64,000 nt of DNA from an uncultured virus (IMG/VR IMGVR_UViG_3300032288_004063) (IMGVR_UViG_3300032288_004063); one strand, 5' to 3'; shown: positions 10,741-64,000, numbered from the stretch's first letter. Notes: generated by a model not told the origin, from the sequence alone. Translations and numbers: made by a program.

Positions 10741-11368
10741 TTGTCGTTACGTTCATGACCTTATTGATGCTACCCGATTGAGAATATGTAAAGTTTCCGC
10801 CATTTCCGGTATGCGTAATTGTAGCGGTGTGTGGAATCACAGGAGCTCCTGTTTGCGTGAAGCTTGTAGTGTTTGTATCGCCTGTAATATTCAATGTCAG
10901 CGTACCCGAAGCGGAATTCATTAACAATGTAGTTTGATTGCTATCTCCTGTTACGGTTGCATCTATTATCACATTGCTTTTCTTTATTGTTATGTCTGTA
11001 GTATTATTGTCGCCAATATTGTAGAACTTGGCATTGACGGAAGCACACGCATCTGTATTTCCTGCGTTGCACTTGAACTCCATGGTATTTGTACTACCCT
11101 CTTGTTTCAAGTCTACAGTATTGTTATTACCATTCAATTCAAAATTGAGTGTGTTTACTGCACCGTCTTGCATGATCGTTATATCGTTGTTGTCGCCATT
11201 GATTATTGCTGGCGTCGTTGATGAATTGACCTGATTCAATGCGCCATTTTGTTGCGTGATTGAAAGCGTCAATGCATCACCAAGTTGATCGATATAGATC
11301 TTGCTATCTGTTGCACTAGCGATGTTTGATAACAAAACCATGAACAATGCTGCCCATAGTTTCTTCAT
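10700..11368 (-). CDS. curlin-like repeat protein
   Basis: signal peptide; repeated Q.G..N / G..N beta-arch motifs; downstream of csgG. Confidence 0.7.
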   Translation of the reverse strand: MKKLWAALFMVLLSNIASATDSKIYIDQLGDALTLSITQQNGALNQVNSSTTPAIINGDNNDITIMQDGAVNTLNFELNGNNNTVDLKQEGSTNTMEFKCNAGNTDACASVNAKFYNIGDNNTTDITIKKSNVIIDATVTGDSNQTTLLMNSASGTLTLNITGDTNTTSFTQTGAPVIPHTATITHTGNGGNFTYSQSGSINKVMNVTTNGNNLTATITQSD

Positions 11369-12141
11369 TTATTTCCTTCCTTTCTTTTCCAAAGACCTTT
11401 TCTTTCGCCTTCTCTTATAGTCTCTATTATGCTTTGTTCTATCGCGGCCTTGACTGCGTAGTTTGTTGGTTCATTTACAGCAAGACCAGTTTCTATTTCA
11501 AATGCTCTTGTTCCCATGTCTACAAACTTTAGCGCATCGACTGATGTCTTTACGCTAAGAATTGTCTTTTGTATGGCTACCGATGTTAAAACTTCACCAG
11601 TTTGCACCGATATCAATCTTAGAAATACTGTAATGATGTCCTGTCTATATTGTGTAGAAACACCAACGCCAAGATATCTTGCACCAATTCCACCAGATGT
11701 TATGTTTGTATCATAGCTAATAATGCCGCCTTCAGCAATCAATCCTGCAAATAAAAGCGGACGAAGATCTTTTGCGCGTTCACCTTCAAATGCTTCACGA
11801 GCCGTACGAATAAGTTGGCGCTCCTTGATTAGATTGTCAAGACCAACACGCTCAACGACACGAAACCATTTTCCTTTACCAACATCTTGAAATCCCTTGA
11901 TCAACCAAGATTCAGCACCTTGTGTTACTGCCGTACTTAGATGAGCTACAGTTTCGCTTGGCTTTCTTTGACCTGTTCTGTCTAGAAATGAATATACAGC
12001 AACTATTAGCGGTTGACCATCTATTTCTTCAATCATATCAAACATGTTTTGTGCTTGAGATGGCATTGATTCTGGTTCAGTTACTTGCAATGGAGTCGTG
12101 CATCCAGCAAGCATTAGTAATGCGAGAATGTATTTTTTCAT
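11365..12141 (-). CDS. csgG: curli secretion channel CsgG
   Basis: lipobox LAGC; DRTGQRKP, STAVTQG, WFRVVER.GLDNLIKERQLIR, EGGIISYD. Confidence 0.95.
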   Translation of the reverse strand: MKKYILALLMLAGCTTPLQVTEPESMPSQAQNMFDMIEEIDGQPLIVAVYSFLDRTGQRKPSETVAHLSTAVTQGAESWLIKGFQDVGKGKWFRVVERVGLDNLIKERQLIRTAREAFEGERAKDLRPLLFAGLIAEGGIISYDTNITSGGIGARYLGVGVSTQYRQDIITVFLRLISVQTGEVLTSVAIQKTILSVKTSVDALKFVDMGTRAFEIETGLAVNEPTNYAVKAAIEQSIIETIREGERKGLWKRKEGNK

Positions 12142-12584
12142 CAGAACTTGAACTCGCCAATTGGAACTTCTACCGTCGTAGTATTTCCATTTGATTGAAC
12201 TATCGAAAGTGTTACTGCATCCGCTGTCTTGACAAAGGATATGGTATTTCCTTCGATAACGACGGAACCAGAATTGCTGGCATTTTCACCAAACATTGTA
12301 TCAACAAGTTGTTTGCTCAATTGAGCATAGATTCTACCTTCTACGTTGAGTAGAAACTTCGATAGATTTGAATTGTCTATCTTTCGCTGCTCGGCTTGTC
12401 TTCTTGCTTCTTCTTCAGCTTTTATCTTTTCGCGACGTTGAAATTCCATTGTTTCTATAGTTAGAACGTGCGAAGAATATCCTACACCACTAAATGAAGG
12501 ACTTTTGAAGTTGAATTGAAGATTATCGGCTAAAGCATTACCAGAAATCAACAAAAACATGACAAAGAAAGGTGCTTTTCTCAT
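12141..12584 (-). CDS. csgF: curli assembly factor CsgF
   Basis: signal peptide, F.FKSPSFSG motif, position directly upstream of csgG. Confidence 0.85.
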   Translation of the reverse strand: MRKAPFFVMFLLISGNALADNLQFNFKSPSFSGVGYSSHVLTIETMEFQRREKIKAEEEARRQAEQRKIDNSNLSKFLLNVEGRIYAQLSKQLVDTMFGENASNSGSVVIEGNTISFVKTADAVTLSIVQSNGNTTTVEVPIGEFKF

Positions 12585-30203: not shown

Positions 30204-31517
30204 ATGATTGATTTCTTGATTCCTTCATTTTTTGGATTAATTTCTGGAATAATCGTAGGACTAGTTCCGGGTTTAGGATTGTCCACATTTTTATTGCTAT
30301 GTTTTCCTTATTTGATTAGTCAATCTTTATTGTTTTGCGTGATATTTTACTGTGTTGCATCGGCGACCAGTCAATATTTTGGAAGCATAACGACTTTAAC
30401 TTTTGGCATTCCTGGAGAAACGACAAGCTTGCCTCTGTTTGCAATTAGAGACCAAATAATTGATTCAAATAAGTTTAATGAAGCACATTTTTTGTCTTGT
30501 TATGGTAGTTTTGTTGCCTCAATCATTAGTTTGTTTTTATTTTTCGCAATCGTTGATTTTTTTTCTGAAATTATCTTTTACTTAAAAAGCTACATTGCTT
30601 TAATTAGCTTGATTGTAGGATTAATACTATGTGTCTTTTTTAGTAGCAACAAGAAACTAGTATCAATAGCTTTTATAATATTGGGTTGGTACGCCGGCAA
30701 AGTTGGGTATGATCCTCTATACAATCAAGATTTTTTGACGTTCGGAAATGTTTATCTATATTCTGGCATTCCAATATTACCGGCAGTGCTAGGAATTTAT
30801 GCGATACCGAATGTAATTAAAATGATCTATGATTTAGAGCAGATAAAAACTATTCAATTTCACTATGAAAAAGTTTTTGACAAGACAAATCTTGCTTTAC
30901 AACATAGTTTTGTAGCTATTCGATCTTCCTTCATAGGATTCATAAGTGGGATAATTCCATATGTCGGTACAAGCATTAGCAGTTATTTGGCTTTCTTGAT
31001 TGAAAAGAAACTCAATCCAAACAAATTTTTGTATCAAGCAATTGCAGCAGAATCTGCCAACAACTCTGCAAATATTTCAGTTCTTTTTCCGTTGTTGATG
31101 CTATCTGTTGCAATAGTACCAAGTGAATATATCTTATTGGAAATAGTGTCAAATCAAAACGTTTCAGCAATATGGTCAACCATAACTCAGAATGTTTTTT
31201 ATATTTTGTCTTGTTTATTGATTATCAATGCGATTTGTTTTTTGGTATCTTGGAATCTAATCAATTTCATTAGTATGATATTTTTCAAGGCAAAAAGAGT
31301 ATTGTGTTTTTGCATGATATTTCTTATATTGTATGGCGTATATACGATAGGTTTCAATTACGGACAAGAACTATACTACGTTGTTGTCTTGCTTGTGTTT
31401 TCTATTTTTGGATTTTTATTGCGTAAACATGATTTGCTACCTTTTGTATACTGTTTTTTGCTTCAAAATCATATACAACAAATTGTATATAGAGTAACAA
31501 CAATTTATTTTGGATAA
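30204..31517 (+). CDS. TctA-like tripartite tricarboxylate transporter permease (divergent)
   Basis: GLVPGLG, GIPGE, AAESANNS; ~12 TMs. Confidence 0.75.
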   Translation: MIDFLIPSFFGLISGIIVGLVPGLGLSTFLLLCFPYLISQSLLFCVIFYCVASATSQYFGSITTLTFGIPGETTSLPLFAIRDQIIDSNKFNEAHFLSCYGSFVASIISLFLFFAIVDFFSEIIFYLKSYIALISLIVGLILCVFFSSNKKLVSIAFIILGWYAGKVGYDPLYNQDFLTFGNVYLYSGIPILPAVLGIYAIPNVIKMIYDLEQIKTIQFHYEKVFDKTNLALQHSFVAIRSSFIGFISGIIPYVGTSISSYLAFLIEKKLNPNKFLYQAIAAESANNSANISVLFPLLMLSVAIVPSEYILLEIVSNQNVSAIWSTITQNVFYILSCLLIINAICFLVSWNLINFISMIFFKAKRVLCFCMIFLILYGVYTIGFNYGQELYYVVVLLVFSIFGFLLRKHDLLPFVYCFLLQNHIQQIVYRVTTIYFG

Positions 31518-44457: not shown

Positions 44458-45963
44458 ATGTTTCTTAACAAGTTAAGTTTTAAGAAATTTTCTTATACTC
44501 GTTCAGATCACGATTCCTCTTTTTGTTTTTTGAAAAATCAAAAATTAAATTACTTTAAACACGAAAGATTTCTTCAAATGAAACATTTTGGTTTAGGGGA
44601 TAAAGGATCAGAGTATATCATTGAACAAGAAAATAAAATTATTAGAACGTTAAATCCAGAAGTTGTAATTTTACCAGAAAGATTACTAGAAGATGATATA
44701 TTTCATAACGCAGTAAAACATCATCATCTTCATGCCTTAAGCGTCGATTTTATGGAAAAAATACCATGTGATGTGCATATCATCATAGATGGAGATGGAA
44801 ATGGTAGATGGTACAGTGTATATAGAAACAATCAATTAATAGATAGCGTATTCACAAAAAATACTGGCGGATCTTTAGGTCTTGGTTTAATTTGGTCTGG
44901 ATTTTTATGTGGCGTGACTGCAAAACATGGTATGGATATACCAGGAAAGGTCATGGGATTACAAAGTTACGGTAAACTAAATGAGCTGCATTATGAAAAA
45001 ATTGAAAAGTATAACATGAATTATATAGGTGATCAAGACGCTTTCGACACAGAAGGTCCTTTAGAGCGTATTCCTAGACCATTTTTAAAAAATGAAAATC
45101 ATCTTTTTGTAGTACCTGAAGATATATCTTCAAAAGAAAAACTGGATATCTTACACACAATTCATAAAAAAACCGGTGAAATAGTACTAAGTATATTTGA
45201 AAAATATGCTAAACCAAATGAGCGCATAGGATATTCTGGAGGAGTTGCGCAGAACATAATTTGGAATACGATGCTAAAAAATAGATATCCAAATCTTTCA
45301 ATATATCCACACTGTGGCGACGAGGGGTTAGTCATTGGATTTGCCGAACATTATAGAAAAATAAAAAATATTTCAAAAGAAAATTTTAGTCTTAAAAACT
45401 ATCCATATTCCCAGTTTGATCAAGCTCCCAACGAAGATCCTTCAATTGATACTATTCATAAAACCGCAAAATATCTTGCTGAAGGAAAAATAGTAGCTTG
45501 GTATCAGGGCCATGGAGAAATAGGTCCGCGCGCATTAGGAAATAGATCTATTCTTATGGATCCAAGAATACCAAATGGTAAAAATATTATAAACAATGTC
45601 AAAAAAAGGGAAATATATCGTCCATTTGGTTGTTCCGTTCTAGAAGAATATGCAAAAGAATATTTTGATCTAAATTATCCAAATCCATATATGTTGTATC
45701 TAGGATACACACAAAAAAAAGAATTACGTTCCATAACTCATGTTGATGGCACATCAAGATGTCAAACTGTCAATTCTTCATGCGGTTATTTCAGAACCCT
45801 ACTTGAACATTTTTTTGAGTTGACAGGATGTCCTGTTTTGTTGAATACAAGCCTAAACGAGGCAGGTAAACCTATAGCAGGCTGGATTCACAATGCTGAA
45901 AATTTATTCAAGTCAAGTTCAATAGATGTTCTTGTTGTAGGTAACAAAATTTATAGAAAGTGA
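44458..45963 (+). CDS. carbamoyltransferase (NodU/CmcH family)
   Basis: HD, HH..HA, DG.G, GKVMGL, SGGVAQN, EIGPRALGNRSIL, HVDGTSR.Q, LNTSLN. Confidence 0.92.
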   Translation: MFLNKLSFKKFSYTRSDHDSSFCFLKNQKLNYFKHERFLQMKHFGLGDKGSEYIIEQENKIIRTLNPEVVILPERLLEDDIFHNAVKHHHLHALSVDFMEKIPCDVHIIIDGDGNGRWYSVYRNNQLIDSVFTKNTGGSLGLGLIWSGFLCGVTAKHGMDIPGKVMGLQSYGKLNELHYEKIEKYNMNYIGDQDAFDTEGPLERIPRPFLKNENHLFVVPEDISSKEKLDILHTIHKKTGEIVLSIFEKYAKPNERIGYSGGVAQNIIWNTMLKNRYPNLSIYPHCGDEGLVIGFAEHYRKIKNISKENFSLKNYPYSQFDQAPNEDPSIDTIHKTAKYLAEGKIVAWYQGHGEIGPRALGNRSILMDPRIPNGKNIINNVKKREIYRPFGCSVLEEYAKEYFDLNYPNPYMLYLGYTQKKELRSITHVDGTSRCQTVNSSCGYFRTLLEHFFELTGCPVLLNTSLNEAGKPIAGWIHNAENLFKSSSIDVLVVGNKIYRK

Positions 45964-47312
45964 AAAATATGATTGCTTCAAATACATATTGTTCTTTACC
46001 TTTTTCTAGTTTAGACATAGCGACAAATGGAAATTATAGAATATGTTGTGAAATAGATTGGACAAATGAGGAAGCAATATCTATGAATTTGATCAAAAAT
46101 GACAACGGAAATCCTTATAATGTTTTTGATAAAAAACCTAGTGAAATATTTAATAATAAAGAATTTTTGTCAATAAGAAAACAGATGTTAGATAATGAAA
46201 AACCAAAAATGTGTAAATCATGTTTTGATAGAGAGGAAAATGTAAAATCTTATAGCGTAATTTCTCGTAGAAAAAGATTCAATCGAAAACTCAATTTAGA
46301 TAGTTTCGATATCAATCAAGACATAAAACTTGACGTAAAAAAAATTAATAAACTCTTTATAAGAATGGGAAATCTATGTAATCTTAAATGTAGAATGTGC
46401 AATCCTTATAGTAGTAGTCCGTGGGTTGATGACTGGAACGATATGGCCAAAAAAACAAACATGCTAAGTTTTAGTAAAAAAATGTGGTATTTGACTGACG
46501 ACAAAAAAAATGAACTCAATAGTTATGATTGGTCAAGCAATGATCTTTGGATAAAAAATATTGAAGAAATAGCAGAGAATTTGCAATTAATTGATTTTGC
46601 TGGCGGAGAACCAACTTTATTTGTAGAACAATATAAGTTGTATGATATGCTAATAGAAAAAGATTGTGCAAAAAATGTAACTTTGCTTATGACAACAAAT
46701 CTAACAAATATTCCAAACCAATTTATACAATATATCGACAAATTTAAAAAAGTAGTACTCAATGCAAGTATTGACGGATATAAAGACGTTAATCGTTATG
46801 TAAGGTATCCTACTGCATGGTCTTCAGTAGAAAAAAATTTAGAAAAATATAGATCATACAAAAATGTTGTCTTAAAAAATCAATGCACCATTCAAATGTA
46901 CAACATACTACATTTTGATAAATTTCTAAATTGGATAAAAGAAAAAGAAAAAAATAATTTTAAATTTGATAGTGTACTTTTCAATTCCTTAAGATCACCC
47001 GTTCAATTGGATATCAGAGTTTTGCCAGAAAGATTAAAAAATCTTGCTTATGAAAGACTAAAACCTTTCATTAATGATCCAACTTTTTTTGACAAAAACA
47101 TCATCAACAACAAAGAATGTCCAGTACAATCAATTGTGGATTGGATGCATAGTTCTGATCTATCACAGCACTTGAATCATTTCTTTGCATATACAACTGC
47201 AATTGATATGCAAAGAAATGAAAGTTTGTTGAACATCGCACCTGAATTTGAACCATACTACACGGTATGGAAAAATTATGTCATCAAGAACAAGAATCTA
47301 ATGTCTTCTTGA
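45960..47312 (+). CDS. radical SAM protein with twitch/SPASM-like Cys cluster
   Basis: CNLKCRMC, AGGEP; N-terminal C..PF, CC, CKSC. Confidence 0.9.
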   Translation: MKNMIASNTYCSLPFSSLDIATNGNYRICCEIDWTNEEAISMNLIKNDNGNPYNVFDKKPSEIFNNKEFLSIRKQMLDNEKPKMCKSCFDREENVKSYSVISRRKRFNRKLNLDSFDINQDIKLDVKKINKLFIRMGNLCNLKCRMCNPYSSSPWVDDWNDMAKKTNMLSFSKKMWYLTDDKKNELNSYDWSSNDLWIKNIEEIAENLQLIDFAGGEPTLFVEQYKLYDMLIEKDCAKNVTLLMTTNLTNIPNQFIQYIDKFKKVVLNASIDGYKDVNRYVRYPTAWSSVEKNLEKYRSYKNVVLKNQCTIQMYNILHFDKFLNWIKEKEKNNFKFDSVLFNSLRSPVQLDIRVLPERLKNLAYERLKPFINDPTFFDKNIINNKECPVQSIVDWMHSSDLSQHLNHFFAYTTAIDMQRNESLLNIAPEFEPYYTVWKNYVIKNKNLMSS

Positions 47313-47317
47313 CAACT

Positions 47318-48880
47318 TCATCTACTAATACTACCTAAATTCATATACCAACCAGCAGCAGTCAAGTTCACATTCTTCAATTGCTTGTTTGAAGCAATCT
47401 TGAATGTAGGTTGTACAAGATTTATGAAAATAGCTTCATCGACCATGTTTTTCTGATACTGTTCATACATCGCATTTCTACGAATGACATTAGACTCCAT
47501 AGCTCCCATTTCAGCAAGATCAACAAGATCCTTTGATGGCTGCCAATGCATTCTTTTTGCGATTCCTCTCACAAAAGGTTTTGTCCACAAACTAGGTTCA
47601 AGTGCATCGATTGTAAATGATACGATAGATGCTTGAAGTTTTGCGGTCCTGTATTGTGTTGTTACTGAAGACGCATCCATTGGAGTCAGATTGACTTTGA
47701 TATTGATCTTGGCAAGATCCGATTGAATTTTTTGTGCCAATAGTGATGTGCTAACATTTAGAGTTGGAGTTGTTGAGTATGCAAAATTGAATTCAAATCC
47801 ATTTGGATTATTCGACATGCTCAAATGCTTTCTTGCCTTTTCTAGATCAAATCTATATCCAAACTTTTCAGTTTGTTCGTTTGTCGCACCACCAATTCCA
47901 ATTGGAAGAATTGATGCTGGTCTTATGCCATAATTACCAAGAAGATTTTTGATGATACCATCATAATCAATTGCATGTGCAATTGCTAGTCGCGCATTCT
48001 TGTTTGCAAGGGCGCTATTCAACTGTGAACCGTTTGTTAGTGCCATGTAGACATAGTCCAAACTTGGTTCAGATACAATTCTAAAATCTTTGTTCTTAGC
48101 CAGTTCGATCTGTTCATTTGACAGATTGAATGCGATGTCGATGTCATTTCTCTGTAGAGCTAGAAACTGTGCAGCGCCATCAGCAATGTGGCGAATGATC
48201 ACTCTATCAAAGTGCAATTTTTCATGCCAAAATGAATTGCGTTCAAGAACAACAATCTCATTTCTTGTCCATCGTGTCATTCTATATGGGCCAGAACCAT
48301 AAGACTTTTCATCAAGATGTCTTGTTGCTGTATCTTTGTCTTTTGATGTCTCATTGCTGACACCACCAAGAGCCTCAAGTTGTTTCTTTGAAAAAATTGA
48401 AAGAGACACAGTTGTCAAAATAGGAAGTAATGGCTCTTGAGGATTTTCCATAAAAACATCAAAAGTTGTGTTGTCTATCACGACAGTTTCTTTTATGTTC
48501 TCGGCAAAATATGCGGGCTGATCTTTCAGATTCTTTAGTCTATCAAAAGAAAATTTTACATCATGTGCGGTAACAGGTTCTCCGTTCCAAAATTTGGCAT
48601 TTTCGCGAAGATAGAATCTCCACGATTTTCCAGAATTAGAAGACTCCCATCTCTTTGCAAGTGCTGGTTTTAGGTCCTCATAATTATTTGCCGAAACAGT
48701 GATCAAAGTCTCGTATACATTACCTAAAGTCAGTGGCGGAGAAACTTCTGCTTGACGAGATGGATCATATGTTCGCCCGTCAGAAATATTCATACCAATA
48801 ATTAGTGTCCTATCTCGTTGAGCGTGAGCATTGAACGCAAGTAGGAAAATTGATAAAATGATAGACAAAAACTTTTTCAT
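47318..48880 (-). CDS. ABC transporter substrate-binding protein (family 5, peptide/nickel)
   Basis: signal peptide; YETL, PALA..W, F.LR..KF.NG.PVTA.DVKFSF, GSGPY. Confidence 0.92.
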   Translation of the reverse strand: MKKFLSIILSIFLLAFNAHAQRDRTLIIGMNISDGRTYDPSRQAEVSPPLTLGNVYETLITVSANNYEDLKPALAKRWESSNSGKSWRFYLRENAKFWNGEPVTAHDVKFSFDRLKNLKDQPAYFAENIKETVVIDNTTFDVFMENPQEPLLPILTTVSLSIFSKKQLEALGGVSNETSKDKDTATRHLDEKSYGSGPYRMTRWTRNEIVVLERNSFWHEKLHFDRVIIRHIADGAAQFLALQRNDIDIAFNLSNEQIELAKNKDFRIVSEPSLDYVYMALTNGSQLNSALANKNARLAIAHAIDYDGIIKNLLGNYGIRPASILPIGIGGATNEQTEKFGYRFDLEKARKHLSMSNNPNGFEFNFAYSTTPTLNVSTSLLAQKIQSDLAKINIKVNLTPMDASSVTTQYRTAKLQASIVSFTIDALEPSLWTKPFVRGIAKRMHWQPSKDLVDLAEMGAMESNVIRRNAMYEQYQKNMVDEAIFINLVQPTFKIASNKQLKNVNLTAAGWYMNLGSISR

Positions 48881-48941: not shown

Positions 48942-49652
48942 ATGAAAATGTATTCATACGAACAAACAAAAACCATTCCAATGGCAGATTATGATGACGG
49001 TCTACGTTCATATATGATGGGCGTATACAATCACATGATGGTCGCATTGCTTGTAACAGGCCTTACGTCATATCTATCCGCACCACTTCTTGCTCCACTA
49101 ATTGGAACAGCATGGTGGTTTGTAATTGCTCTATCGCCTTTGGCCTTTGTTCTTGCCTTTTCGTTTGGTATCAATAGAATGTCTGACATCATGGCAAAAA
49201 TAGTTTTCTATGCATATTCGATTGCAATGGGAGCAAGTCTAAGCATCATTTTCATTTCTTTCACTACAGCAAGCATTGCAAAAGTATTTTTCATTTGTTC
49301 ATCGATCTTTGCAGCAGCTAGCCTATACGGATATACGACAAAGAAAGATCTGACAAGCATGTCCACATTTCTTCTCATGGGAATGTTTGGACTAATCATT
49401 GCAAGCATCGTCAACATTTTCTTGGCAAGTTCAATGGTGGCTTGGATCATTTCTGTTGTTGCCGTTCTTGTTTTTACAGCAATGACTGCATATGACACGC
49501 AAAATTTGAAAGAGGAATATTTGAGCAACGGTGAGGTGTATGGACTCGATTCTAAGGAAAAAAGTTCCATATTTGGAGCCTTGACATTATATCTGAATTT
49601 TGTTATACTCTTTGAACATCTCTTGGCTCTATTGGGTCAAAAGAACGAGTGA
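48942..49652 (+). CDS. Bax inhibitor-1/YccA family membrane protein
   Basis: GLRSYM.GVY..M, YGYTTKKDL, AYDTQ, ALTLYLNF. Confidence 0.92.
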   Translation: MKMYSYEQTKTIPMADYDDGLRSYMMGVYNHMMVALLVTGLTSYLSAPLLAPLIGTAWWFVIALSPLAFVLAFSFGINRMSDIMAKIVFYAYSIAMGASLSIIFISFTTASIAKVFFICSSIFAAASLYGYTTKKDLTSMSTFLLMGMFGLIIASIVNIFLASSMVAWIISVVAVLVFTAMTAYDTQNLKEEYLSNGEVYGLDSKEKSSIFGALTLYLNFVILFEHLLALLGQKNE

Positions 49653-49702: not shown

Positions 49703-50149
49703 ATGAAGAAGTATCTTGCTGCACTCGCAGGCGTTGTTATGTCAACTTCGGCAATGGCTGCTGATCTTTATGTGACGGGTTCAGTTGGAACTCATGCTAC
49801 GGGCGCTGGCGACTCGGTCGTTGGTGTTGCTCTTGGCATGGAGCCAAACAAGAATCTGCGTGTTGAGGCTGCATATCAGTATGATGTGGACAACAAGAAG
49901 AACAACCTTTTCGCACACGTTCTTCCACAGTACGCAATTCCCAACACAGGCCTAACTCCATATGTTCTAGTTGGTGTTGGCGCTGACCTTGAATCGCTTG
50001 ATTCAAGACCTCTGTATGTTCTTGGCGGCGGTCTTCGCGTCGAAATGACAAAGACTGTCGATTTCGATGTGCGCTATCGTCGCATTGACAATACAGACAA
50101 TACAGACAAGCGTGAAGTCGTTACAGGCGGCGTAAGCGTAAAGTTCTGA
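49703..50149 (+). CDS. small 8-stranded outer-membrane beta-barrel protein
   Basis: signal peptide AMA; LRVE, TPYV.VGVG, terminal Phe. Confidence 0.85.
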   Translation: MKKYLAALAGVVMSTSAMAADLYVTGSVGTHATGAGDSVVGVALGMEPNKNLRVEAAYQYDVDNKKNNLFAHVLPQYAIPNTGLTPYVLVGVGADLESLDSRPLYVLGGGLRVEMTKTVDFDVRYRRIDNTDNTDKREVVTGGVSVKF

Positions 50150-50216: not shown

Positions 50217-50750
50217 ATGATTACAAAGGTTCCAAATGTTGTTTTTCATACTCGCGTTCGCGATGATTCTATTGATAGCCCAAACCCATATAGATGGGCG
50301 CAGGTAAGCACCTTTGAATTGTTTTCCGACAAGACAATTCTAGCATTCTCTCTTCCTGGCGCATTCACACCAACTTGTTCGACATATCAAGTTCCTCGCT
50401 TTGAGGAAATGTATACCAAGTTCCGCGCTCTTGGCATTGACGATGTCTATTGCATTTCAGTCAATGATGCTTTCGTCATGAATGCATGGGCCAAGAAGCA
50501 GGGCATCGAAAACTTGAAGATGATTCCAGATGGTTCTGGTAATTTTACTCGTCACATGGGAATGCTTGTTGACAAGGACAATCTTGGATTCGGTATGCGT
50601 TCATGGCGCTATGCATTTCTTGCTCGCAATATGGAAATTACTGGTTCATGGATTGAGCCGGGCTTCAAGGATCTTGCAGTCGATGATCCGTATGGCGAAA
50701 CCAATCCAGAAAAGATCTATTCGGATCTAAAAGGTATTAACATTAGATGA
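50217..50750 (+). CDS. peroxiredoxin (Prx5 type)
   Basis: LPGAFTPTCS, SVNDAFVMNAW, GMRSWRY. Confidence 0.95.
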   Translation: MITKVPNVVFHTRVRDDSIDSPNPYRWAQVSTFELFSDKTILAFSLPGAFTPTCSTYQVPRFEEMYTKFRALGIDDVYCISVNDAFVMNAWAKKQGIENLKMIPDGSGNFTRHMGMLVDKDNLGFGMRSWRYAFLARNMEITGSWIEPGFKDLAVDDPYGETNPEKIYSDLKGINIR

Positions 50751-56952: not shown

Positions 56953-57290
56953 CTAGAGTTAAAAATAGGTATGATTGGTATAGGCCAATGACCTTAGGTG
57001 AGATAGAGCGTCTTGATAAACTACTGCAGTTGGCTTATACTATGACAGACAATAGACTACAAGGAGTGCAGCTTGAGTATTGGGCTCTATATATGCAAAT
57101 GTATCCCCATGTAACTCAGCCAAAAGATCTTGCTTGGTTTGTAGACTTTATCGTTAAGATGTGTACACCAGAATTTATGGAATCGACAGTGAAATGCGTC
57201 AAGATTTGTGCCCATATAATTGTCGACCTGATCATACCACACTGTAACTCTTTAAAAAAGAAAAAGAAAAGTTTTGAAAACAATTCATAA
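56949..57290 (+). CDS. hypothetical protein
   Basis: co-oriented overlapping ORF. Confidence 0.55.
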   Translation: MTRVKNRYDWYRPMTLGEIERLDKLLQLAYTMTDNRLQGVQLEYWALYMQMYPHVTQPKDLAWFVDFIVKMCTPEFMESTVKCVKICAHIIVDLIIPHCNSLKKKKKSFENNS

Positions 57291-57304
57291 AATGGAGACT
57301 TCAT

Positions 57305-57694
57305 GTGACAACCGAGAATGAAAACAAGCCTACGAATGTACTAAAGTTTCCCAAGCACAAGCAGCCAGTGTCTCTTTCGGCAGCTCAGTCAAAGGAAGAG
57401 TTTGTCAAGCAGCTGGGAGAAAACAAGGAACGATACATTGACATGGTTCTCGCTCGCACGATGAATCAACTATATGGTCGTATGGCAGCAGAAGGATTCA
57501 ATACCGAAGACGATGCATTCTTCACCGACTTCTGCTTCGTCGTGGAAGCATTGAAGTCGGCCATGCTTCGTCAGTGTGGTCTGGAACATTCTCTCCAGAA
57601 GTTCGTTGATGAAAACTTTGAAGCCGCACCACAGACGGAAGAAATGGAAGATTATGAAGAGTATATGGGAAAGAATGATGACGAAGACAAGTAA
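57305..57694 (+). CDS. hypothetical protein
   Basis: GGAG RBS; NVLKFP motif; upstream of rnh. Confidence 0.75.
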   Translation: MTTENENKPTNVLKFPKHKQPVSLSAAQSKEEFVKQLGENKERYIDMVLARTMNQLYGRMAAEGFNTEDDAFFTDFCFVVEALKSAMLRQCGLEHSLQKFVDENFEAAPQTEEMEDYEEYMGKNDDEDK

Positions 57695-57736
57695 AAAGTT
57701 CTTGATCTTTCCAACATAATGAAGTAAGATACATTT

Positions 57737-58579
57737 ATGATTCTTATTGATTATAACCAACTTTGCATTGCCAATCTCATGAAGCAGATTGGTAATTCTC
57801 AAAATCTGGAAGAGGGCCTTGTGCGTCACATGGTTCTCAATTCCATTCGTGCAATTTCCAAGAAGTTTCGCAATCATGGCGATATAGTAATCGCCTGTGA
57901 TGGTCCAACTTATTGGCGTCGCGATGTATATCCTCAGTATAAGCAGCATCGCAAGAAGGATCGCGAGAAGTCCGGACACGATTGGACCGCTATCTTCACC
58001 ATTCTGCACAAGATCCGTGAAGAGATCTCCCAGCATATGCCATACAAGGTCATTCGCGTCGAAGGCGCCGAGGCTGACGATATCATTGCCGTGCTGACCA
58101 AGAAGTATGCGCCGCATGAGAATATCATGATCGTGTCTTCGGACAAGGATTTCGTTCAGCTTCATGTCAACAAGAGCGTGAAGCAGTGGTCACCTATTCT
58201 TGGTAAGTTTGTCACTACGGATTCTCCGCAGCGCGACAAGCTGGAGCATATTCTGCGAGGTGATAAGGGTGATGGCATTCCTAATGCGCTATCCGACGAC
58301 GATTCTTTCGTGAAGGGCGAACGTCAGAAGACGCTAAATAGCAAGAAACTGGCTGAGTGGTTAGAACTTTCGTATGATGACCTCGCTCAGCATAGCCAAC
58401 TTGGACATGGATTTACTCGTAACAGAATGCTAATCGACCTCGACAACATTCCGACAAATATCTCGCAGGCCATTACTGATCAATACGAATCCATTGCTCC
58501 GAAGCCTCGTGCTGCCATGATCAATTATTTCATGGCATCCAAACTAACCAATCTAATTTCCTCTATTGATGAGTTTTGA
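57737..58579 (+). CDS. rnh: RNase H / 5'-3' exonuclease (T4 rnh-like)
   Basis: ILIDYNQ, YWRR..YP.YK..R, EADDII, SSDKDF.QL, GDKGDGIPN. Confidence 0.93.
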   Translation: MILIDYNQLCIANLMKQIGNSQNLEEGLVRHMVLNSIRAISKKFRNHGDIVIACDGPTYWRRDVYPQYKQHRKKDREKSGHDWTAIFTILHKIREEISQHMPYKVIRVEGAEADDIIAVLTKKYAPHENIMIVSSDKDFVQLHVNKSVKQWSPILGKFVTTDSPQRDKLEHILRGDKGDGIPNALSDDDSFVKGERQKTLNSKKLAEWLELSYDDLAQHSQLGHGFTRNRMLIDLDNIPTNISQAITDQYESIAPKPRAAMINYFMASKLTNLISSIDEF

Positions 58580-59019
58580 AAATGATATTGACAATTTCCG
58601 AAGTGTTTGAAAAATTTGAAAAGGCGGAAACGGATGCTGATCGCATCAATGTTCTTCGCGCAAACAATACCAGAACCCTACGCAAGGTTCTCGCCTGTGC
58701 ATTCAATCCAAACATTCAGTTTACGACTGAAGGACGCTGGCCGAATTGGAAGCCATCGGATGTACCAACTGGCGTAACATATTCAGATCTACATCGCGAG
58801 TTTGATCGCGTGTATCTGTTTATTGCAAATCATCCAAAGCGTCCTCCGACTCTGGCAGAGAAGCGTTCAAATGAACTGCTTATCCAGATGCTTGAGATCA
58901 TGCCTCAAGGTGATGCCATCGTGCTATTGAACATGATGGGCAAGAACCTGAAGGTCAAGGGACTAACGCAAGAAATTGCTGAAGCTGCATTTCCAAATGT
59001 CTTGAACGAGAGTATTTGA
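58576..59019 (+). CDS. conserved T4-like phage hypothetical protein
   Basis: ISEVF...IQMLE...AFP; typical position after rnh. Confidence 0.75.
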   Translation: MKMILTISEVFEKFEKAETDADRINVLRANNTRTLRKVLACAFNPNIQFTTEGRWPNWKPSDVPTGVTYSDLHREFDRVYLFIANHPKRPPTLAEKRSNELLIQMLEIMPQGDAIVLLNMMGKNLKVKGLTQEIAEAAFPNVLNESI

Positions 59020-59049
59020 TTATGATGAACGCAAGAAGGAGCCTTCCAA

Positions 59050-59445
59050 ATGCGAAATCGTACCAAATCAAAGCTAGCAAAGGAAATGTCTCGCACACAT
59101 GAAAAGTGCAAATATGTTCCCACGGAAGATGAAGTCATTCGTTGGTTCAATATAATCAATCGTGAGATTTTCAAGAATGATCTTCCGCAATTTAGGAAAA
59201 TTGAAATACGTCGCCGCCATGGTTGTTGGGGTGAGTGTATTGGAGACACTAGCAAGACGAAAGGCAGATACTCTGATCTTTCCCTCAACCATTACCAAAA
59301 ATCCAAAAAGCATTTCATTGAAGTCCTGATACACGAAATGGTTCACCACTATCAATGGATACATGAGAATACAATGACACACGGCGAAACATTCTTCTCA
59401 TGGAAACCAAAGCTCGCCAAATACAACGTCACCCTGACAGCATAA
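59050..59445 (+). CDS. SprT-like zinc metalloprotease
   Basis: IN..IF, LIHEMVH.YQ, HG..F. Confidence 0.85.
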   Translation: MRNRTKSKLAKEMSRTHEKCKYVPTEDEVIRWFNIINREIFKNDLPQFRKIEIRRRHGCWGECIGDTSKTKGRYSDLSLNHYQKSKKHFIEVLIHEMVHHYQWIHENTMTHGETFFSWKPKLAKYNVTLTA

Positions 59446-59463
59446 GGAGTAGAATTATCAAAC

Positions 59464-59631
59464 ATGTCTAAGCGTAAGTATAATGAGAATTATGAAGAAG
59501 ATGATGAAATTGACTTTGATGCAGACAAGGCGGTTCGCAAAGCAAAGCGACAGAATTCCAAAAGCCTATTGAAGAAGTGGCAAGATGCTGAAGAAGATGA
59601 TGAATATGACGATGAATTTTACGCCAGATAA
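59464..59631 (+). CDS. small charged protein (55 aa, not in ORF track)
   Basis: AAGGAG upstream; MSKRKYNENYEEDD... Confidence 0.6.
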   Translation: MSKRKYNENYEEDDEIDFDADKAVRKAKRQNSKSLLKKWQDAEEDDEYDDEFYAR

Positions 59632-59632
59632 A

Positions 59633-59902
59633 ATGATAATTCTAAACGAGGTCATTGTTGATCCAAAGACCTCAGAAATGCATACGCGCCGAATGCTTGT
59701 TCGCGCATCCGATGTGATTCAGGCATATGAAAGAAACACAAAACGTAATACATACGTTCATGTCGTGCTAAGAAATGCCACGGGAGCATCAAACATCATT
59801 GAGGTGCAGGAGACTCTGGCTCAGATCATGACGCGAGTCAATATGAATTGGGATTCAGATTCCAATCATCTTGATCCAGAATACAAGGAAATGTATTACT
59901 AA
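59633..59902 (+). CDS. hypothetical protein
   Basis: IEVQETLAQI motif; co-oriented. Confidence 0.6.
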   Translation: MIILNEVIVDPKTSEMHTRRMLVRASDVIQAYERNTKRNTYVHVVLRNATGASNIIEVQETLAQIMTRVNMNWDSDSNHLDPEYKEMYY

Positions 59903-60219
59903 AAGGATTCGTTATCGTCCGACGGGAAGATAGGATCAAGAGGTTCATAATATCCGTAATGATTCTTGTAGCTAGACTCTCTGAGTCTATCAAGATGAAC
60001 TTCGGATAAATTGTTTCGGCGAACTGCTTCTCTGCGCTTTTGTTCCTGTTCGGGAGTAAACTTTTGCATACCACGATTTTTAGCAGCACAAGGCTTGGAA
60101 CAGAATCTCGCCTTGGTACGAGTAGTAAACTCAGCATCACAGTACTGACAAACTTTCGTTGTGCGTGATGTTGCAGGACGACCAACAGGACGATTTGTTT
60201 TGACGTAATATTTTCCCAT
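59899..60219 (-). CDS. zinc-finger protein, possible endonuclease-derived DNA-binding remnant
   Basis: GRP, CQYC...FCSKPC; CATAAATA upstream; antisense. Confidence 0.6.
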   Translation of the reverse strand: MGKYYVKTNRPVGRPATSRTTKVCQYCDAEFTTRTKARFCSKPCAAKNRGMQKFTPEQEQKRREAVRRNNLSEVHLDRLRESSYKNHYGYYEPLDPIFPSDDNESF

Positions 60220-60840
60220 GGAGATATTTATGATAGACGATAGAATGTTTATAGATAGAATTGCACGTTCAATGTATGTCATGAAGCTTGGTCTTGCTGA
60301 TGATGCATGGGACAAGCTGAATGATGAAGCCAAGAGGTTTTGGCGAAGCGAAGTCGAGCAGTTCATTGCGGCTACAAATCATGCGAATATTGCACTCTAC
60401 GATTCGATGGATGTAAGATGAACAAGAAACAAACCGAACATCTGCTTGAAGTTTGTGATTCGATTTTGGATTTGATGGAGAATTTTTCTCCACACAATTT
60501 TGAAGCTTCCAAACACAGCTTCATGTTTACGATGATGTATGACATGATGCTCACTTCGATTGTAGTCATGCAAAATACCCTGTATTTGCATCACGATATG
60601 TTGGAAGAAAATGAAATAAAGAACACGCCGCCAACGTTAGATACACATACTGCAATGGATGACTAATGCATCTACTAGAACTAACCAAGATTGTAGACGA
60701 TACTTTTCAGCGCACGATCAAGTTCAATCCCGATGGGAGTGTAGGTCATAATTTAGATAGGGATGTCTTTCGCGTTATTGCCATAGCCGTCGCAGCAGAT
60801 ATACTAGATAGGCATACGGTCACAAAAAAGGAAGACTAGA

Positions 60841-61023
60841 ATGAAACGTCTATATGTGCTTTCTCTTCTATTTCTTGGTGGATGCTACGTTCATTATCCA
60901 TACTATCACCCACGAAGATACTATCATCCTCCAGTAATGCATTACCGCGCACCGATTTGCCATACACAGTATTACTGGAATCCATATACGCGCAATTACT
61001 ATCCAAGAAGACATTGCTATTGA
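60841..61023 (+). CDS. small Tyr/His/Pro-rich lipoprotein-like protein
   Basis: LGGC lipobox, YYHP repeats. Confidence 0.65.
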   Translation: MKRLYVLSLLFLGGCYVHYPYYHPRRYYHPPVMHYRAPICHTQYYWNPYTRNYYPRRHCY

Positions 61024-61273
61024 CATTTTTTGAATTTTGCGTTATAACTCTTGTTGTAGGATTTGTTTTATCCTTGATACTATTCGTGATCATTGGAGTG
61101 GAAAAAAATGATTGAGAAGCGAAAAGTGGAAATCAGCATGGATGAATTCTATGAGGCAGTTCGCCTGTTCATCCATGATACCAAGAAAATCGTCATGCCA
61201 ATGGAAAGATCCAAAGTCAAGATGGACGCCACAGAACACAAACTGACCTTTGAGTGGGAACTCAAATAAGTAG

Positions 61274-61302
61274 TTGACATATTCAACGAACCAAGATATA
61301 AT
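61274..61302 (+). promoter_or_regulatory. consensus sigma70 (early) promoter
   Basis: TTGACA-17bp-TATAAT. Confidence 0.85.
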
Positions 61303-61332
61303 CTGAATACAAACTCAATAAGGAGAAGTGGA

Positions 61333-61692
61333 ATGAAGACTTTCAAGAACATGGCTGCGCAGGGTGATTTCATCATCATGCGCGTGGACAATCTTCCCAA
61401 GGGACTTGAGAAGATCGATCCAAAGAACAACACCTATACGGTGGCACACTCGGAGACTGGTCATGACCACGTGATGGTCATGGAGCGTCCTGGCACCGTC
61501 GAGGCTTTCAAGGAGAAGGGTGCCAGCGACGTTGATCTCTATGAGATGTTTCTGCTGGTAACGGAGGATACTCCGATTGAGCATAGGCGCGCATGGGACA
61601 CCCATGAGACTCTGCTTGTTCCTCCTGGAAAGTACAAGATCCGTCGTCAGCGTGAGTATGTGCCGGAGGGTTTCCGCAAGGCTGCTGACTGA
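61333..61692 (+). CDS. His-rich beta-fold conserved protein (partner of DUF6745-like gene)
   Basis: AQGD, HSETGHDH, H...TH, PPG.Y.IRRQREY.P. Confidence 0.8.
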   Translation: MKTFKNMAAQGDFIIMRVDNLPKGLEKIDPKNNTYTVAHSETGHDHVMVMERPGTVEAFKEKGASDVDLYEMFLLVTEDTPIEHRRAWDTHETLLVPPGKYKIRRQREYVPEGFRKAAD

Positions 61693-61763
61693 TCCTGAAT
61701 TCCTGAGCGATGTTTGCTTAGAGCGGTTGGAGAATTAGTTCTCGCGAACCGCATTTTTTCTGC

Positions 61764-61792
61764 TTGACAATACCAATCATACATCGTATCAT
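61764..61792 (+). promoter_or_regulatory. sigma70-type promoter
   Basis: TTGACA-17bp-TATCAT. Confidence 0.75.
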
Positions 61793-61821
61793 ACATTCAC
61801 ACTAATCATACAGAGGAAAAC

Positions 61822-62685
61822 ATGACGAAGAAGCTTACCAGTCTTACCAAGAACCAGACCGAGGCGATGCCGAAGTATGTCACTAAGTGGGTTGACATTG
61901 GCCTTTCCACGGAGCCTGTGGATTTCGAGAAGGCCAAGGGTCTCGTAGCAAAGGCATATACTGCCGTTGGTCTTCCTGAGCCAAAGAAGTATCATTTCGC
62001 GAAGGGTCCAGATGAGGGCTTTAAGATCTTCAAGAAGCGTTCTGGCAACAAGAGCCGTTCGGACTATACGGCTGGTTGCATGTTCGGTTCGATGGAAGCT
62101 TCTTGGCTTTCCTATTACGATTACTATCGTAACGAGACCAATATCGAACTGACTGACATCAGCTATATGCAGGAGCTGGCTCGGAACTGTGGCTGGGTTT
62201 ACTGTGGCGAGACCGAGGCGATTATTCATGATCGTCCCGAGGTCATCAAGTTTGATGACCGTCGTCTGTCTCATTGCGAGACTGGTCCGGCAATTCGGTA
62301 TCGCGATGGCTTTGAGATCTATTCGTGGCATGGTCTGACCATTCCTGACGAGTGGATCAAGGACCGCAAGAGCCTGACCGCGAAGGTTGCTCTTGGTCAG
62401 ACCAACGCGGAGCTGCGTCGTGCTGCGTGTGAGATCCTGGGTTGGGCTAATGTCATCGATCAGCTTGATTCGACGGTGATTGATGAGGATGCTGATGAGA
62501 TGATCGGCACTCTGCTGGAAGTCAATATTCCAGACATTGGCAAGGAGAAGTTTCTTTTCGTGAAGTGTGGCACGGGACGTAACTTTGCGCTTCCTGTTCC
62601 GCCAGACATGAAGACTGCTCTTGAGGCTAACGCCTGGACGTATGGTCTGAAGCCCGCTGAGTATGTTCCAGAGGTTCGTACCTGA
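61822..62685 (+). CDS. DUF6745-like protein
   Basis: A.WL.YYDY, DRP..I..D..RL.H.ETGPAIRYRDG..IY.WHG, NAELRR..EI.G, VPP.M..A.EA.AWTYG. Confidence 0.8.
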   Translation: MTKKLTSLTKNQTEAMPKYVTKWVDIGLSTEPVDFEKAKGLVAKAYTAVGLPEPKKYHFAKGPDEGFKIFKKRSGNKSRSDYTAGCMFGSMEASWLSYYDYYRNETNIELTDISYMQELARNCGWVYCGETEAIIHDRPEVIKFDDRRLSHCETGPAIRYRDGFEIYSWHGLTIPDEWIKDRKSLTAKVALGQTNAELRRAACEILGWANVIDQLDSTVIDEDADEMIGTLLEVNIPDIGKEKFLFVKCGTGRNFALPVPPDMKTALEANAWTYGLKPAEYVPEVRT

Positions 62686-62697
62686 GTGAGGGTGAGG

Positions 62698-62728
62698 GAA
62701 ACAGCGGCGAAAGCCGCTGTTTTCTTTT
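62698..62728 (+). terminator. intrinsic terminator-like hairpin
   Basis: GAAACAGCGGC-GAAA-GCCGCTGTTTT + CTTTT. Confidence 0.75.
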
Positions 62729-62733
62729 GTGTC

Positions 62734-62904
62734 ATGAAGTCAGTCATAGATCAAGTCTTCGATCAAGTCAGAGATCAAGTCTTCGATCAAGTCAGAGATC
62801 AAGTCGAGAGTCAAGCCTGGTATCAAGTCGGGGATCAAGTCTTGAGTCAAGTCTTGCATCAAGTCTGGGATCAAGTCTTCTCCAAAGCGAGAACTGAATC
62901 ATGA
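62734..62904 (+). CDS. QV-repeat mini-protein 1
   Basis: MKSVIDQVFDQVRDQV...KARTES. Confidence 0.65.
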   Translation: MKSVIDQVFDQVRDQVFDQVRDQVESQAWYQVGDQVLSQVLHQVWDQVFSKARTES

Positions 62905-63071
62905 AATCAGTCAAAGATCAAATCTGTAGCCAACTCGATGACCAAGTCTCAAATCAAGTCTTGCGTCAAGTCTTGTTTCAAGTCTACATACAAGTCTTTG
63001 ATCAAGTCAGGTTTCAAGTCTGGATTCAAGTTGGACGTAAAGTCTTGTCCAAAGCGAGAACTGAATCATGA
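62901..63071 (+). CDS. QV-repeat mini-protein 2 (56 aa, not in ORF track)
   Basis: MKSVKDQICSQLDDQVSNQV...KARTES; ATGA overlap. Confidence 0.7.
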   Translation: MKSVKDQICSQLDDQVSNQVLRQVLFQVYIQVFDQVRFQVWIQVGRKVLSKARTES

Positions 63072-63262
63072 AATCAGTCGAACATCAAGTAAAGAAACAA
63101 GTCTATTATCAAGTCGATGATCAAGTCAGGCGTCAAGTCGGGCGTCAAATCTGGAATCAAGTCTATCGTCAAGTCGGAGATCAAGTCTATCATCAATTCG
63201 GAGAACAAGTCGTGCGTAAAGTCTGGCATCAAGTCTGGCATAAAAAGAGATCCAAATCATGA
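63068..63262 (+). CDS. QV-repeat mini-protein 3
   Basis: MKSVEHQV...; ATGA overlap. Confidence 0.7.
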   Translation: MKSVEHQVKKQVYYQVDDQVRRQVGRQIWNQVYRQVGDQVYHQFGEQVVRKVWHQVWHKKRSKS

Positions 63263-63453
63263 AATCAGTCAGAGATCAAGTCAGAGATCAAGTCGAGAGT
63301 CAAGTCTTCGAACAAGTCGGGGATCAAGTTAGAGATCAAGTCGAGAGTCAAGTCTGGTATCAAGTCGGGGATCAAGTCGGGGATCAAGTCTTGAGTCAAG
63401 TCTGGAATAGAATTGAGCGTAGAGTCTGGGACAAAGCGAGATTCAAACAATGA
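63259..63453 (+). CDS. QV-repeat mini-protein 4
   Basis: MKSVRDQV...; ATGA overlap. Confidence 0.7.
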   Translation: MKSVRDQVRDQVESQVFEQVGDQVRDQVESQVWYQVGDQVGDQVLSQVWNRIERRVWDKARFKQ

Positions 63454-63632
63454 ATTCAGTCATAGATCAAATCAAAGATCAAGTTGCGGATCATGTCTAT
63501 GATCAAGTCTTGAATCAAGTCACTGGTCAAGTCTATTACCAAGTCCAAAATCAAGTCTGGTATCAAATCGAGGTTCAAGTCGGCAGTCAAGTCAGATATC
63601 AAATTTCGGATAAAACGAGTGCTGAAGCATGA
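63450..63632 (+). CDS. QV-repeat mini-protein 5
   Basis: MNSVIDQI...; ATGA overlap. Confidence 0.7.
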   Translation: MNSVIDQIKDQVADHVYDQVLNQVTGQVYYQVQNQVWYQIEVQVGSQVRYQISDKTSAEA

Positions 63633-63811
63633 AATCAGTCATAAAACAAGTCAGAGGAAAAGTCTGGAATCAAGTCTTTGATCAAGTCGAGCGTCAAGTC
63701 ACGGATGAAGTCGAGGATCAAGTCTGCGATCAAGTCAGAAATCAAATCACGGATCAAGTCGGGGATCAAGTCTGGCTTGAAGTCTTGCATAAAGCGAGAA
63801 CCCATCCATGA
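63629..63811 (+). CDS. QV-repeat mini-protein 6
   Basis: MKSVIKQV...; ATGA overlap. Confidence 0.7.
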   Translation: MKSVIKQVRGKVWNQVFDQVERQVTDEVEDQVCDQVRNQITDQVGDQVWLEVLHKARTHP

Positions 63812-64000
63812 AATCGGTCAAAGATCAAGTCTGGATTCGAGTCGCGGAACAAGTCTCATGTCAAGTCTTGCATCAAGTCTTGCATCAAGTCTATTATCAA
63901 GTCTGGAATCAAGTCCAAAATAAAATCTGGCATCAAGTCGAGAATCAAGTCTTGGATCAAGTCTGGTCTAAAGTCTGGATTCAATCCTCGGAAGAAACGA
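63808..64000 (+). CDS. QV-repeat mini-protein 7 (truncated by window end)
   Basis: MKSVKDQVWIRV...; ATGA overlap. Confidence 0.7.
   Translation, partial: MKSVKDQVWIRVAEQVSCQVLHQVLHQVYYQVWNQVQNKIWHQVENQVLDQVWSKVWIQSSEET

Follow-up and report, generated by a model that had tools for sequence, protein, structure and literature searches.

The subject of this report is an array of very short open reading frames (ORFs) at the end of a 64,000 nt stretch of DNA from the uncultured virus IMGVR_UViG_3300032288_004063, hereafter called the window; the array occupies the final 1.27 kb. Each ORF encodes a mini-protein of xxQV tetrads, i.e., two variable residues followed by Gln and Val. Judged by profile matches, position and gene linkage, these mini-ORFs are genes equivalent to a repeat tract that lies inside other proteins of the DUF6745 family, and in the window they are linked to a DUF6745 gene without such a tract and to its partner gene. 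We hold it for somewhat more probable than all other accounts taken together that the seven ORFs are real genes, diversified free-standing copies of the DUF6745 tract, which act with the DUF6745 core in an arms-race system. Frame conservation, the overlaps between the genes and the reading of the same DNA in the QV frame inside long DUF6745 ORFs point to translation of the mini-ORFs. The mini-proteins would act together with the core, in a system that, by analogy, may have a part in an arms race, for example in counter-defence.

Seven ORFs were found on the plus strand from position 62734 to the window end, with sizes of 56, 56, 64, 64, 60, 60, and at least 64 aa. The first mini-gene (62734-62904, 56 aa, MKSV..SKARTES) begins at GTG 62686 in the ORF list, and the in-frame ATG at 62734 gives the MKSV start that matches the relatives. 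It is followed by mini-genes 2 (62901-63071, 56 aa), 3 (63068-63262, 64 aa), 4 (63259-63453, 64 aa), 5 (63450-63632, 60 aa, with MNSV start and non-basic tail), 6 (63629-63811, 60 aa), and 7 (63808 to beyond 64000, at least 64 aa, open at the window end). All six junctions are 4-nt ATGA overlaps, six of the N-termini are MKSV and one is MNSV, and the size differences are multiples of 4 aa. The array probably continues past the window end, since the related contig L001 (98%) has nine mini-genes. Read in register, 65 of 106 tetrads are exact xxQV and 90 of 106 follow xx[QKEHRS][VIL]. Tandem Repeats Finder reported a period of 12 in the array. Within the 65 strict units, positions 6-12 of the 12-nt unit are TCAAGTC (T in 57, CAAGT in all 65, and C in 61), and positions 1-5 are variable with an entropy of 1.0-1.8 bits. 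The tails are SKARTES (twice), HKKRSKS, DKARFKQ, and HKARTHP, with one non-basic, DKTSAEA. The initial annotation, made from the sequence alone, had described this chain by its M(K/N)SV starts, xxQV units, 12-nt period, TCAAGTC core, lengths in multiples of four and ATGA overlaps, all of which were recovered here; the tails, called mostly basic and KAR-like, are basic in five of the six given. No comparable tract was found elsewhere in the whole 64 kb by regular-expression scan, and the matches of the mini-proteins to Pfam and PHROG were scattered and all under the cut-off.

The relation to DUF6745 came from a profile of 24 mini-proteins, searched against 1.84 billion representative proteins. 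The search gave 3287 matches at E<=1e-3, of which 508 reached E<=1e-10 and 53 reached E<=1e-30, though the repeats are low-complexity and these E-values exaggerate the kinship between mini-proteins and fused tracts. Among the 150 best matches, 145 also fit a DUF6745 profile built for this analysis and carry an internal period-4 tract, mostly QVxx, from approximately residue 75-90. Such an internal QV repeat before the WLSFYDY motif had been described for many DUF6745 proteins in the initial annotation, and this was confirmed. In addition, when the mini-protein alignment was compared by hhalign with the xxQL tract in Mycobacterium phage prophiGD102-1 gp38, the probability was 96.5. The position of the fused tract was determined from 33 examples: it follows the helix ...DSPLxGAxGAAxL and ends few residues before GxHDAGWLSFYDYF. 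Exactly at this position the DUF6745 protein of the window reads GPDEGFKIFKKRSGNKSRSDYTAGCMFGSMEASWLSYYDYY, a short linker, and no 12-nt periodic stretch was found within its gene; alignment of homologues thus places the tract where it had been anticipated.

The DUF6745 proteins with an internal tract (L012, L013, L015, L085, L088, prophiGD102-1 gp38, and many alphaproteobacterial loci) share the core domain with the window protein and have the same framework type, QV or QL, at the position of the window's linker. The partner gene adjoins in nearly all of these loci, as it does in the window, and is absent beside prophiGD102-1 gp38. The difference lies in the arrangement. Fused tracts comprise 16-70 tetrads within the protein, while the window has separate genes of 12-14 tetrads, each with its own start, tail and overlap junction. 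Other frameworks were also found in fused form, i.e., xxAV (L013), xSAT (L012), xNAT (P0124, P0127), xxAT (P0122), and xxQL in the mentioned gp38, as well as xxNL, xxNI, and xxSV in bacterial loci. Among cultured phages, Microcystis phage Ma-LMM01 and its MaMV relatives carry a member of the same DUF6745 family, which is distant from the window's protein (tblastn 28.6% identity, E 6e-12).

The viral sample consisted of 87 loci and the window, 88 in total, and the DUF6745 proteins were sorted into 48 clusters at 90% identity; the second search behind this sample started from a repeat-less query and kept the 80 best of its 228 relatives, which biases the sample towards repeat-less forms. In 35 clusters the system was split, with a repeat-less DUF6745 and free-standing 12-nt-periodic ORFs within 6 kb, and 28 of these 35 had at least two QV-type ORFs. 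The non-QV split types were L010 (xNAT), L086 (xxRV), and L016. Five clusters were fused, and none of these five had a free array. The remaining eight had a repeat-less DUF6745 and no array within the flanks examined. If the fused clusters were placed at random, all five would be among the 13 array-less ones with a probability of C(13,5)/C(48,5) = 7.5e-4, with kinship uncorrected. The proposed co-occurrence of arrays with the gene pair is seen in 35 of the 48 viral clusters and in none of the five fused ones. The partner gene is nearly always found next to DUF6745: 45 of the 48 viral clusters have it there, as do 48 of the 50 bacterial loci. One or more QV mini-ORFs were present in 49 of the 88 viral loci, nearly always on the DUF6745 strand, the exceptions being 4 of 10 mini-ORFs in L022 and 1 of 2 in L054/L055. 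Over the loci we recorded 171 distinct QV mini-ORFs with a median size of 64 aa. Adjacent mini-ORFs formed 164 pairs, 77 with a 4-nt overlap and 29 with another overlap, and in several loci mini-genes overlap or abut the genes of the pair at 0-7 nt.

Bacterial genomes, mainly of Alphaproteobacteria, contributed 50 loci. Clear fused tracts were found in 18 of them and long non-periodic inserts in six, and true arrays occurred only in L092 and L124. The remaining automatic calls of split systems were rejected, being mostly contigs cut within a fused tract or split profile matches. The repeat outside DUF6745 in L111 was a masked run of N, and the outside repeats in L119 were a tract in another protein of 248 aa and a Gly-rich repeat. 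Some bacterial contigs (L104, L113, and L118) carry two tandem DUF6745 genes.

A tree of 72 proteins was calculated with IQ-TREE in quick mode over their C-terminal 195 residues, with support from the Shimodaira-Hasegawa-like approximate likelihood ratio test (SH-aLRT) only. The state, split versus fused or insert, requires only three changes on this tree. Most split forms are contained within two groups, the larger with 33 rows and a support of 90 (not starred), the smaller with 7 rows and a support of 93, and rows with neither tract nor array are scattered among the split rows. Locus L010 has five free xNAT mini-genes with the framework AATGCCACT in 41 of 41 units, and it is placed inside a starred clade (SH-aLRT 98) of fused xSAT/xAAT/xNAT proteins. 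Since the free genes of L010 share their framework with the nearest fused relatives, the tree and the frameworks together show detachment of the tract at least twice independently. The xNAT genes lie at L010:5276-5919 and 7068-7520, and xNAT is also found in P0124 and P0127; Asn-Ala-Thr of this framework has the form of the N-x-T sequon of N-glycosylation, perhaps by coincidence.

The mini-proteins could also act independently of their own DUF6745 core, either as free binding or self-assembling peptides, or as decoys jamming the tract-bearing DUF6745 proteins of prophages or rival phages. The distribution just described would suit this, as fused forms dominate bacterial genomes, where they are probably prophages (18 of 50 clear), and split forms dominate free viral contigs. 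The AlphaFold2 model of the window's DUF6745 protein (predicted local distance difference test, pLDDT, 93.3; predicted template modelling score 0.82) points the same way, because the fused tract appears as an excursion from a compact core which folds confidently without it (pLDDT 92-98 over residues 60-110), and no docking site is implied. The terminator between array and gene pair in the window, and the presence of tetrad tracts in at least three unrelated protein contexts, both described below, favour independent action as well. We nevertheless consider it rather unlikely, for three reasons. The mini-genes are tightly linked to the repeat-less DUF6745 on the same strand, often by translational overlap; free arrays and fused tracts are distributed complementarily; and the framework type of the free genes is that of the nearest fused relatives. 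These observations argue for the favoured reading, in which the mini-proteins work with the core.

The turnover of the arrays could be followed on three viral contigs, L001-L003, which carry the same gene pair with 91-98% protein identity. At the DNA level the window shares 96-98% identity with L001 and L002 in the pair region, and 99.5% with L002 over the 3 kb upstream. The best matches of mini-genes between the window and these contigs were 0.70-0.84, no closer than those among paralogues within the window, 0.73-0.78. This comparison shows arrays reshuffled between phages with near-identical flanks, diversifying, as judged from these sequences, far faster than the flanks. Of the "split, diversifying system" proposed initially, both the split and the fast diversification thus stand, on the evidence of tract position, the 35 of 48 clusters and the comparison of flanks; the further part of that proposal, helical peptides acting in trans as specificity modules or decoys, is a hypothesis. 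A junction of approximately 29 nt (AAAGCGAGAACyGAAyC-ATGAAATCAGTC), which includes the stop/start overlap, is conserved over genes and contigs. Two adjacent mini-genes among the nine of L001 (L001:7092-7286 and 7283-7477) encode identical 64-aa proteins, apparently the product of a recent tandem duplication by way of the conserved junction. The last mini-gene of L001, the ninth (8399-8581), has kept the MKSV start and lost its tetrads, and is degenerate. In L002 a 190-aa ORF on the minus strand (6785-7357) lies between DUF6745 and the array, and a remnant mini-gene tail stands immediately before the first array gene; this ORF is absent from the window and L001, and looks like an insertion of homing-endonuclease type.

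These same features would suit an array that is mainly a reservoir at the DNA level, with cassettes swapped at the core or the junction, mutually or with tract genes of co-infecting phages, and with translation secondary. The conserved junction of about 29 nt and core of 7 nt, the identical adjacent copies in L001, the arrays wholly reshuffled between near-identical phages and the limited vocabulary of words per array (27 words in 206 units of L089) can all be read in this way. We find such a reservoir improbable. The DUF6745 gene of the window has no acceptor tract, the 171 distinct QV mini-ORFs retain their starts, stops and overlaps, and a scan of 62 window ORFs revealed neither a recombinase nor a reverse transcriptase.

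The framework codons of the array are highly uniform. CAA was used in 65 of 65 cases and GTC in 61 of 65, while in the 64 other long ORFs of the window CAA makes 66% of Gln codons and GTC 21% of Val codons, which argues that the uniformity of the framework is not codon bias. The codons differ by lineage. CAA-GTC is found in most, CAG-GTC in L026, L030, L057, L060, and L087 (CAG 83 of 84 in L087), and CAA-GTA in L084 (GTA 30 of 36). Uniformity within an array together with differences between lineages fits homogenisation or recent expansion of each array. A universal TCAAGTC motif with its own reader was ruled out, since the CAGGTC and CAAGTA lineages are equally uniform internally. The variable words correspond approximately one to one with dipeptides, with 45 words for 41 dipeptides in the window and 27 for 27 over the 206 units of L089. 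Units that are one-base neighbours, pooled over 27 loci as pairs that are not independent of each other, comprised 120 synonymous and 797 non-synonymous pairs, a synonymous share of 0.131 against 0.201 expected (p 1.7e-8). The variable residues are at least unconstrained and probably favoured to change, and the synonymous sites of the framework stay fixed.

The codon pattern also bears on whether the repeats are coding at all. Each strand of the window's repeats has open frames, several in all, so openness by itself proves nothing, and the framework is conserved even at its synonymous sites; a 12-bp DNA repeat without coding function, either binding sites or junk, with open frames as a by-product of repeat composition, would account for both. 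We regard this as very improbable, because the QV frame is read inside long conserved DUF6745 ORFs, because conserved MKSV-type starts and overlapping stops are found only in the QV frame, over 49 loci, and because a core that is not universal speaks against one motif with a sequence-specific reader.

The gene pair lies upstream of the array on the same, plus strand. The partner gene (61333-61692) encodes a 119-aa His-motif protein matching phrog_27831 (E 6e-11), with the motifs QGD, AHSETGHxH, HxR..DTHE, and RQREY. Across 36 homologues 20 residues are invariant, including H39, H44, H46, H84, and H91, plus Asp and Glu, and this cluster may represent a metal site. The repeat-less DUF6745 gene (61822-62685) encodes 287 aa and matches PF20530 (E 9.5e-31, 107.1 bits) over profile positions 8-206 of 206, a score far over the cut-off of 27; it also matches phrog_31813 (E 2.7e-15). 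These Pfam and PHROG matches agree with the initial description of a His-motif protein and a DUF6745-like protein at this place. In P0135 (542 aa) one chain consists of a DUF6745 domain and a C-terminal copy of the His-motif partner, a natural fusion which argues that the two work together. In P0372 (133 aa) a mini-gene tail (MLKSVRKQVWDQ...) runs directly into the partner protein; gene callers merge these overlapping genes. The G+C content is 53% in the partner gene, 51% in DUF6745, 42% in the array, and 40% in the window, and the upstream pair uses CAG for 6 of 6 Gln. The pair may have been imported recently, or may be under a codon pressure unlike that of the array.

Sites of the sigma-70 type stand before both genes, at 61274-61302 before the partner gene (TTGACA-17-TATAAT, 12 of 12 consensus matches) and at 61764-61792 before DUF6745 (TTGACA-17-TATCAT, 11 of 12), both on the plus strand. 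Each gene had been credited with a strong sigma-70 promoter; the near-consensus sites are there, but they are consensus matches only, and the number of such sites in the region is no higher than in shuffles. Between DUF6745 and the array there is a terminator-like hairpin with a T-run at 62694-62731 on the plus strand, supported by RNA folding and by a scan match at 62703-62721; it had been placed at 62698-62728 initially. The hairpin has a folding energy of -30.7 kcal/mol (z -6.3), which none of 200 shuffles equalled, it is kept in L001 and L003, and it stops three bases short of the first ATG of the array.

The mini-ORFs could also encode precursors like those of ribosomally synthesised and post-translationally modified peptides (RiPPs), as short, variable peptides are arrayed here next to two conserved proteins without a fold match, one of which has an invariant, metal-binding-looking His cluster. 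The short conserved N-terminus and the variable cores would then be modified by the DUF6745 protein and its His-motif partner. The array may resemble the precursor-peptide arrays of prochlorosins. We give this explanation very little credence, as the tract is an internal segment of DUF6745 in most relatives, no leader of the usual length is present, no protease or exporter adjoins the array, and neither upstream protein matches a known modifying enzyme.

Among the systems described previously, the closest to the array is the tract of mycobacteriophage Tweety gp54. This protein is reported to have 48 AAxx tetrapeptide copies encoded by a 12-bp unit, which varies at first and second codon positions but keeps its Ala codons and third positions fixed, and the repeat copy number and content differ in Che8 (gp57) and PMC (gp51) (PMC2884959). 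Reviews describe Tweety escape mutants with more or fewer repeats, which overcome the Phrann gp29/gp30 defence; the repeat changes are said to "tune" Tweety to Phrann or MichelleMyBell by a mechanism called obscure (PMC9262239, PMC8549241). As described in these sources, gp54 shares with the window the 12-bp unit, the invariant framework codons, the variation at first and second positions of two codons, and the differences in copy number and content between close phages, and among such tracts in the literature searched it alone has a phenotype shown by experiment. There are also clear differences. Tweety gp54 is a single polypeptide of 374 aa with N- and C-terminal domains, while the mini-proteins of the window have no flanking domains, its framework is AAxx as opposed to xxQV, and no His-motif partner gene adjoins it. 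Membership of gp54 in DUF6745 was rejected, with no Pfam match and an hhalign probability of 0.1 against the DUF6745 alignment. The AAxx tract of gp54 (P0136, residues 143-203) gave sub-threshold matches to FliH models (E 1.1e-12; 48 bits, where the cut-off is 180); FliH has period-4 small-residue repeats of its own, the presumed cause of these matches. A third context was met in the mentioned 248-aa protein from a Pseudomonadota metagenome-assembled genome (L119:1901-2647), which has an N-terminal domain, approximately 17 xSAA tetrads, and a short C-terminal tail, and lies 3.4 kb upstream of a fused xxQL DUF6745. Its architecture is like that of gp54, with no detectable similarity to it. By these comparisons tetrad tracts are found in at least three unrelated protein contexts, namely DUF6745, gp54, and the L119 protein.

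Diversity-generating retroelements (DGRs) act by adenine-directed changes, and the variable positions of the window, in contrast, hold all four bases. We rejected a DGR, as none of the 62 window ORFs of at least 100 aa matched a reverse-transcriptase family at E<=1e-5 and no template copy was seen. The resemblance is that of a localised hypervariable coding repeat in a phage gene, and the Tweety paper compares its repeat with DGR targets and VR2 of Bordetella phage BPP-1 (PMC2884959).

In the favoured reading, the array enlarges and reshuffles by duplication and recombination, which the core of the 12-nt unit and the junction of about 29 nt could drive. The framework codons stay uniform in each lineage, and the two variable residues of each tetrad change freely or under positive selection. 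If this reading is right, the host polymerase would read the gene trio from consensus promoters. Each mini-protein would present a different surface and length, acting with the repeat-less DUF6745 core and the metal-binding-looking partner. The phage would in this way hold a ready-made library, whereas Tweety gp54 has one tract, retuned by mutation against particular prophage defences. A bolder form of the same idea is a germline repertoire, in which a two-protein core is served by 7 to approximately 20 interchangeable, positively diversified mini-proteins, each pre-tuned in its surface and length to neutralise or sense a different host or prophage defence. We think this form doubtful at present; if true, a fixed set of several genes would do what gp54 does by mutational tuning, and this would be a new viral route to combinatorial specificity.

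Several observations weigh against the favoured reading. Flanks like MKSV or KARTES are absent from the fused tracts, and nothing marks a docking element; the absence indicates that the termini of the mini-proteins belong to free genes and the DNA junction. The eight clusters with neither tract nor array suggest that the core may work without mini-proteins, or that their arrays lie elsewhere, and the clusters were counted in a sample with the repeat-less bias given above. The strong hairpin stands between DUF6745 and the array, and no good promoter-like site was found 3' of it in the region scanned, so that expression of the array would need read-through. The excess of non-synonymous neighbours comes from the pooled, non-independent pairs, and the window alone, with 8 synonymous and 44 non-synonymous pairs against an expected share of 0.208, is not significant. 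Finally, since gp54 is not a DUF6745 protein, a counter-defence function would be carried over solely by analogy of the tract.

The free tracts have no flanking domains to hold apart, so that a tract is probably not just a spacer or ruler between two domains. It is likely to be a working surface in its own right, and this would also bear on how gp54 works. With the present findings, the tetrad-tract type is tied to a very large unstudied family, DUF6745 with its conserved partner, and tracts are shown to become detached from the protein and to be maintained as arrays of individual genes. The system is experimentally handy, with proteins of 56-64 aa, natural libraries, and natural fused and split forms for comparison. 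Should the arrays prove to be libraries directed against defence, many binders to bacterial immune proteins could be drawn from them. Our literature search returned no paper naming DUF6745 or PF20530 and none on detached arrays; for phage tetrapeptide repeats only the Tweety line was relevant, and a search for 12-bp hypervariable repeats gave nothing relevant.

Structure predictions and fold searches gave no match to a described fold for the two upstream proteins, and no function could be drawn from them. The DUF6745 model had no solved structural relative (best Foldseek match in PDB E 0.47, best VIA wide Z 4.5), and searching solved structures by its sequence gave chance-level matches only, with E 0.23 and 0.41. 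In BFVD the model found its own family only, with the protein of Microcystis phage LMM01 on top (E 2.4e-16). The partner was modelled by AlphaFold2 as an all-beta protein with pLDDT 81, and no fold match was found for it (best E 0.22, Z 4.3). Against PADLOC and NCBIfam, the partner, DUF6745 and the mini-protein gave nothing at E<=0.01 except a sub-threshold ComB10 row. Matches in the ESM Atlas were unnamed viral clusters of like length only, and megablast of positions 57000-64000 against GenBank phages gave no match.

The remainder of the window belongs to a large phage with 40% G+C, with T4-type RNase H, SegE, ThyX, a class II ribonucleotide reductase, a primase, and a virion protein. A bacterial-looking block was observed on the minus strand at 7667-12584, comprising a CHASE2 sensor fused to an adenylate/guanylate cyclase, a FecR-domain protein, and CsgG and CsgF of curli secretion. 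Further host-like genes were found at 30204-31514, 47321-48880, 48942-49649, 49703-50146, and 50217-50747, a set that includes a TctA transporter subunit, a family-5 solute-binding protein, a Bax1-I family membrane protein, an outer-membrane beta-barrel, and a redoxin. Carbamoyltransferase and radical SAM genes are located at 44458-47309.

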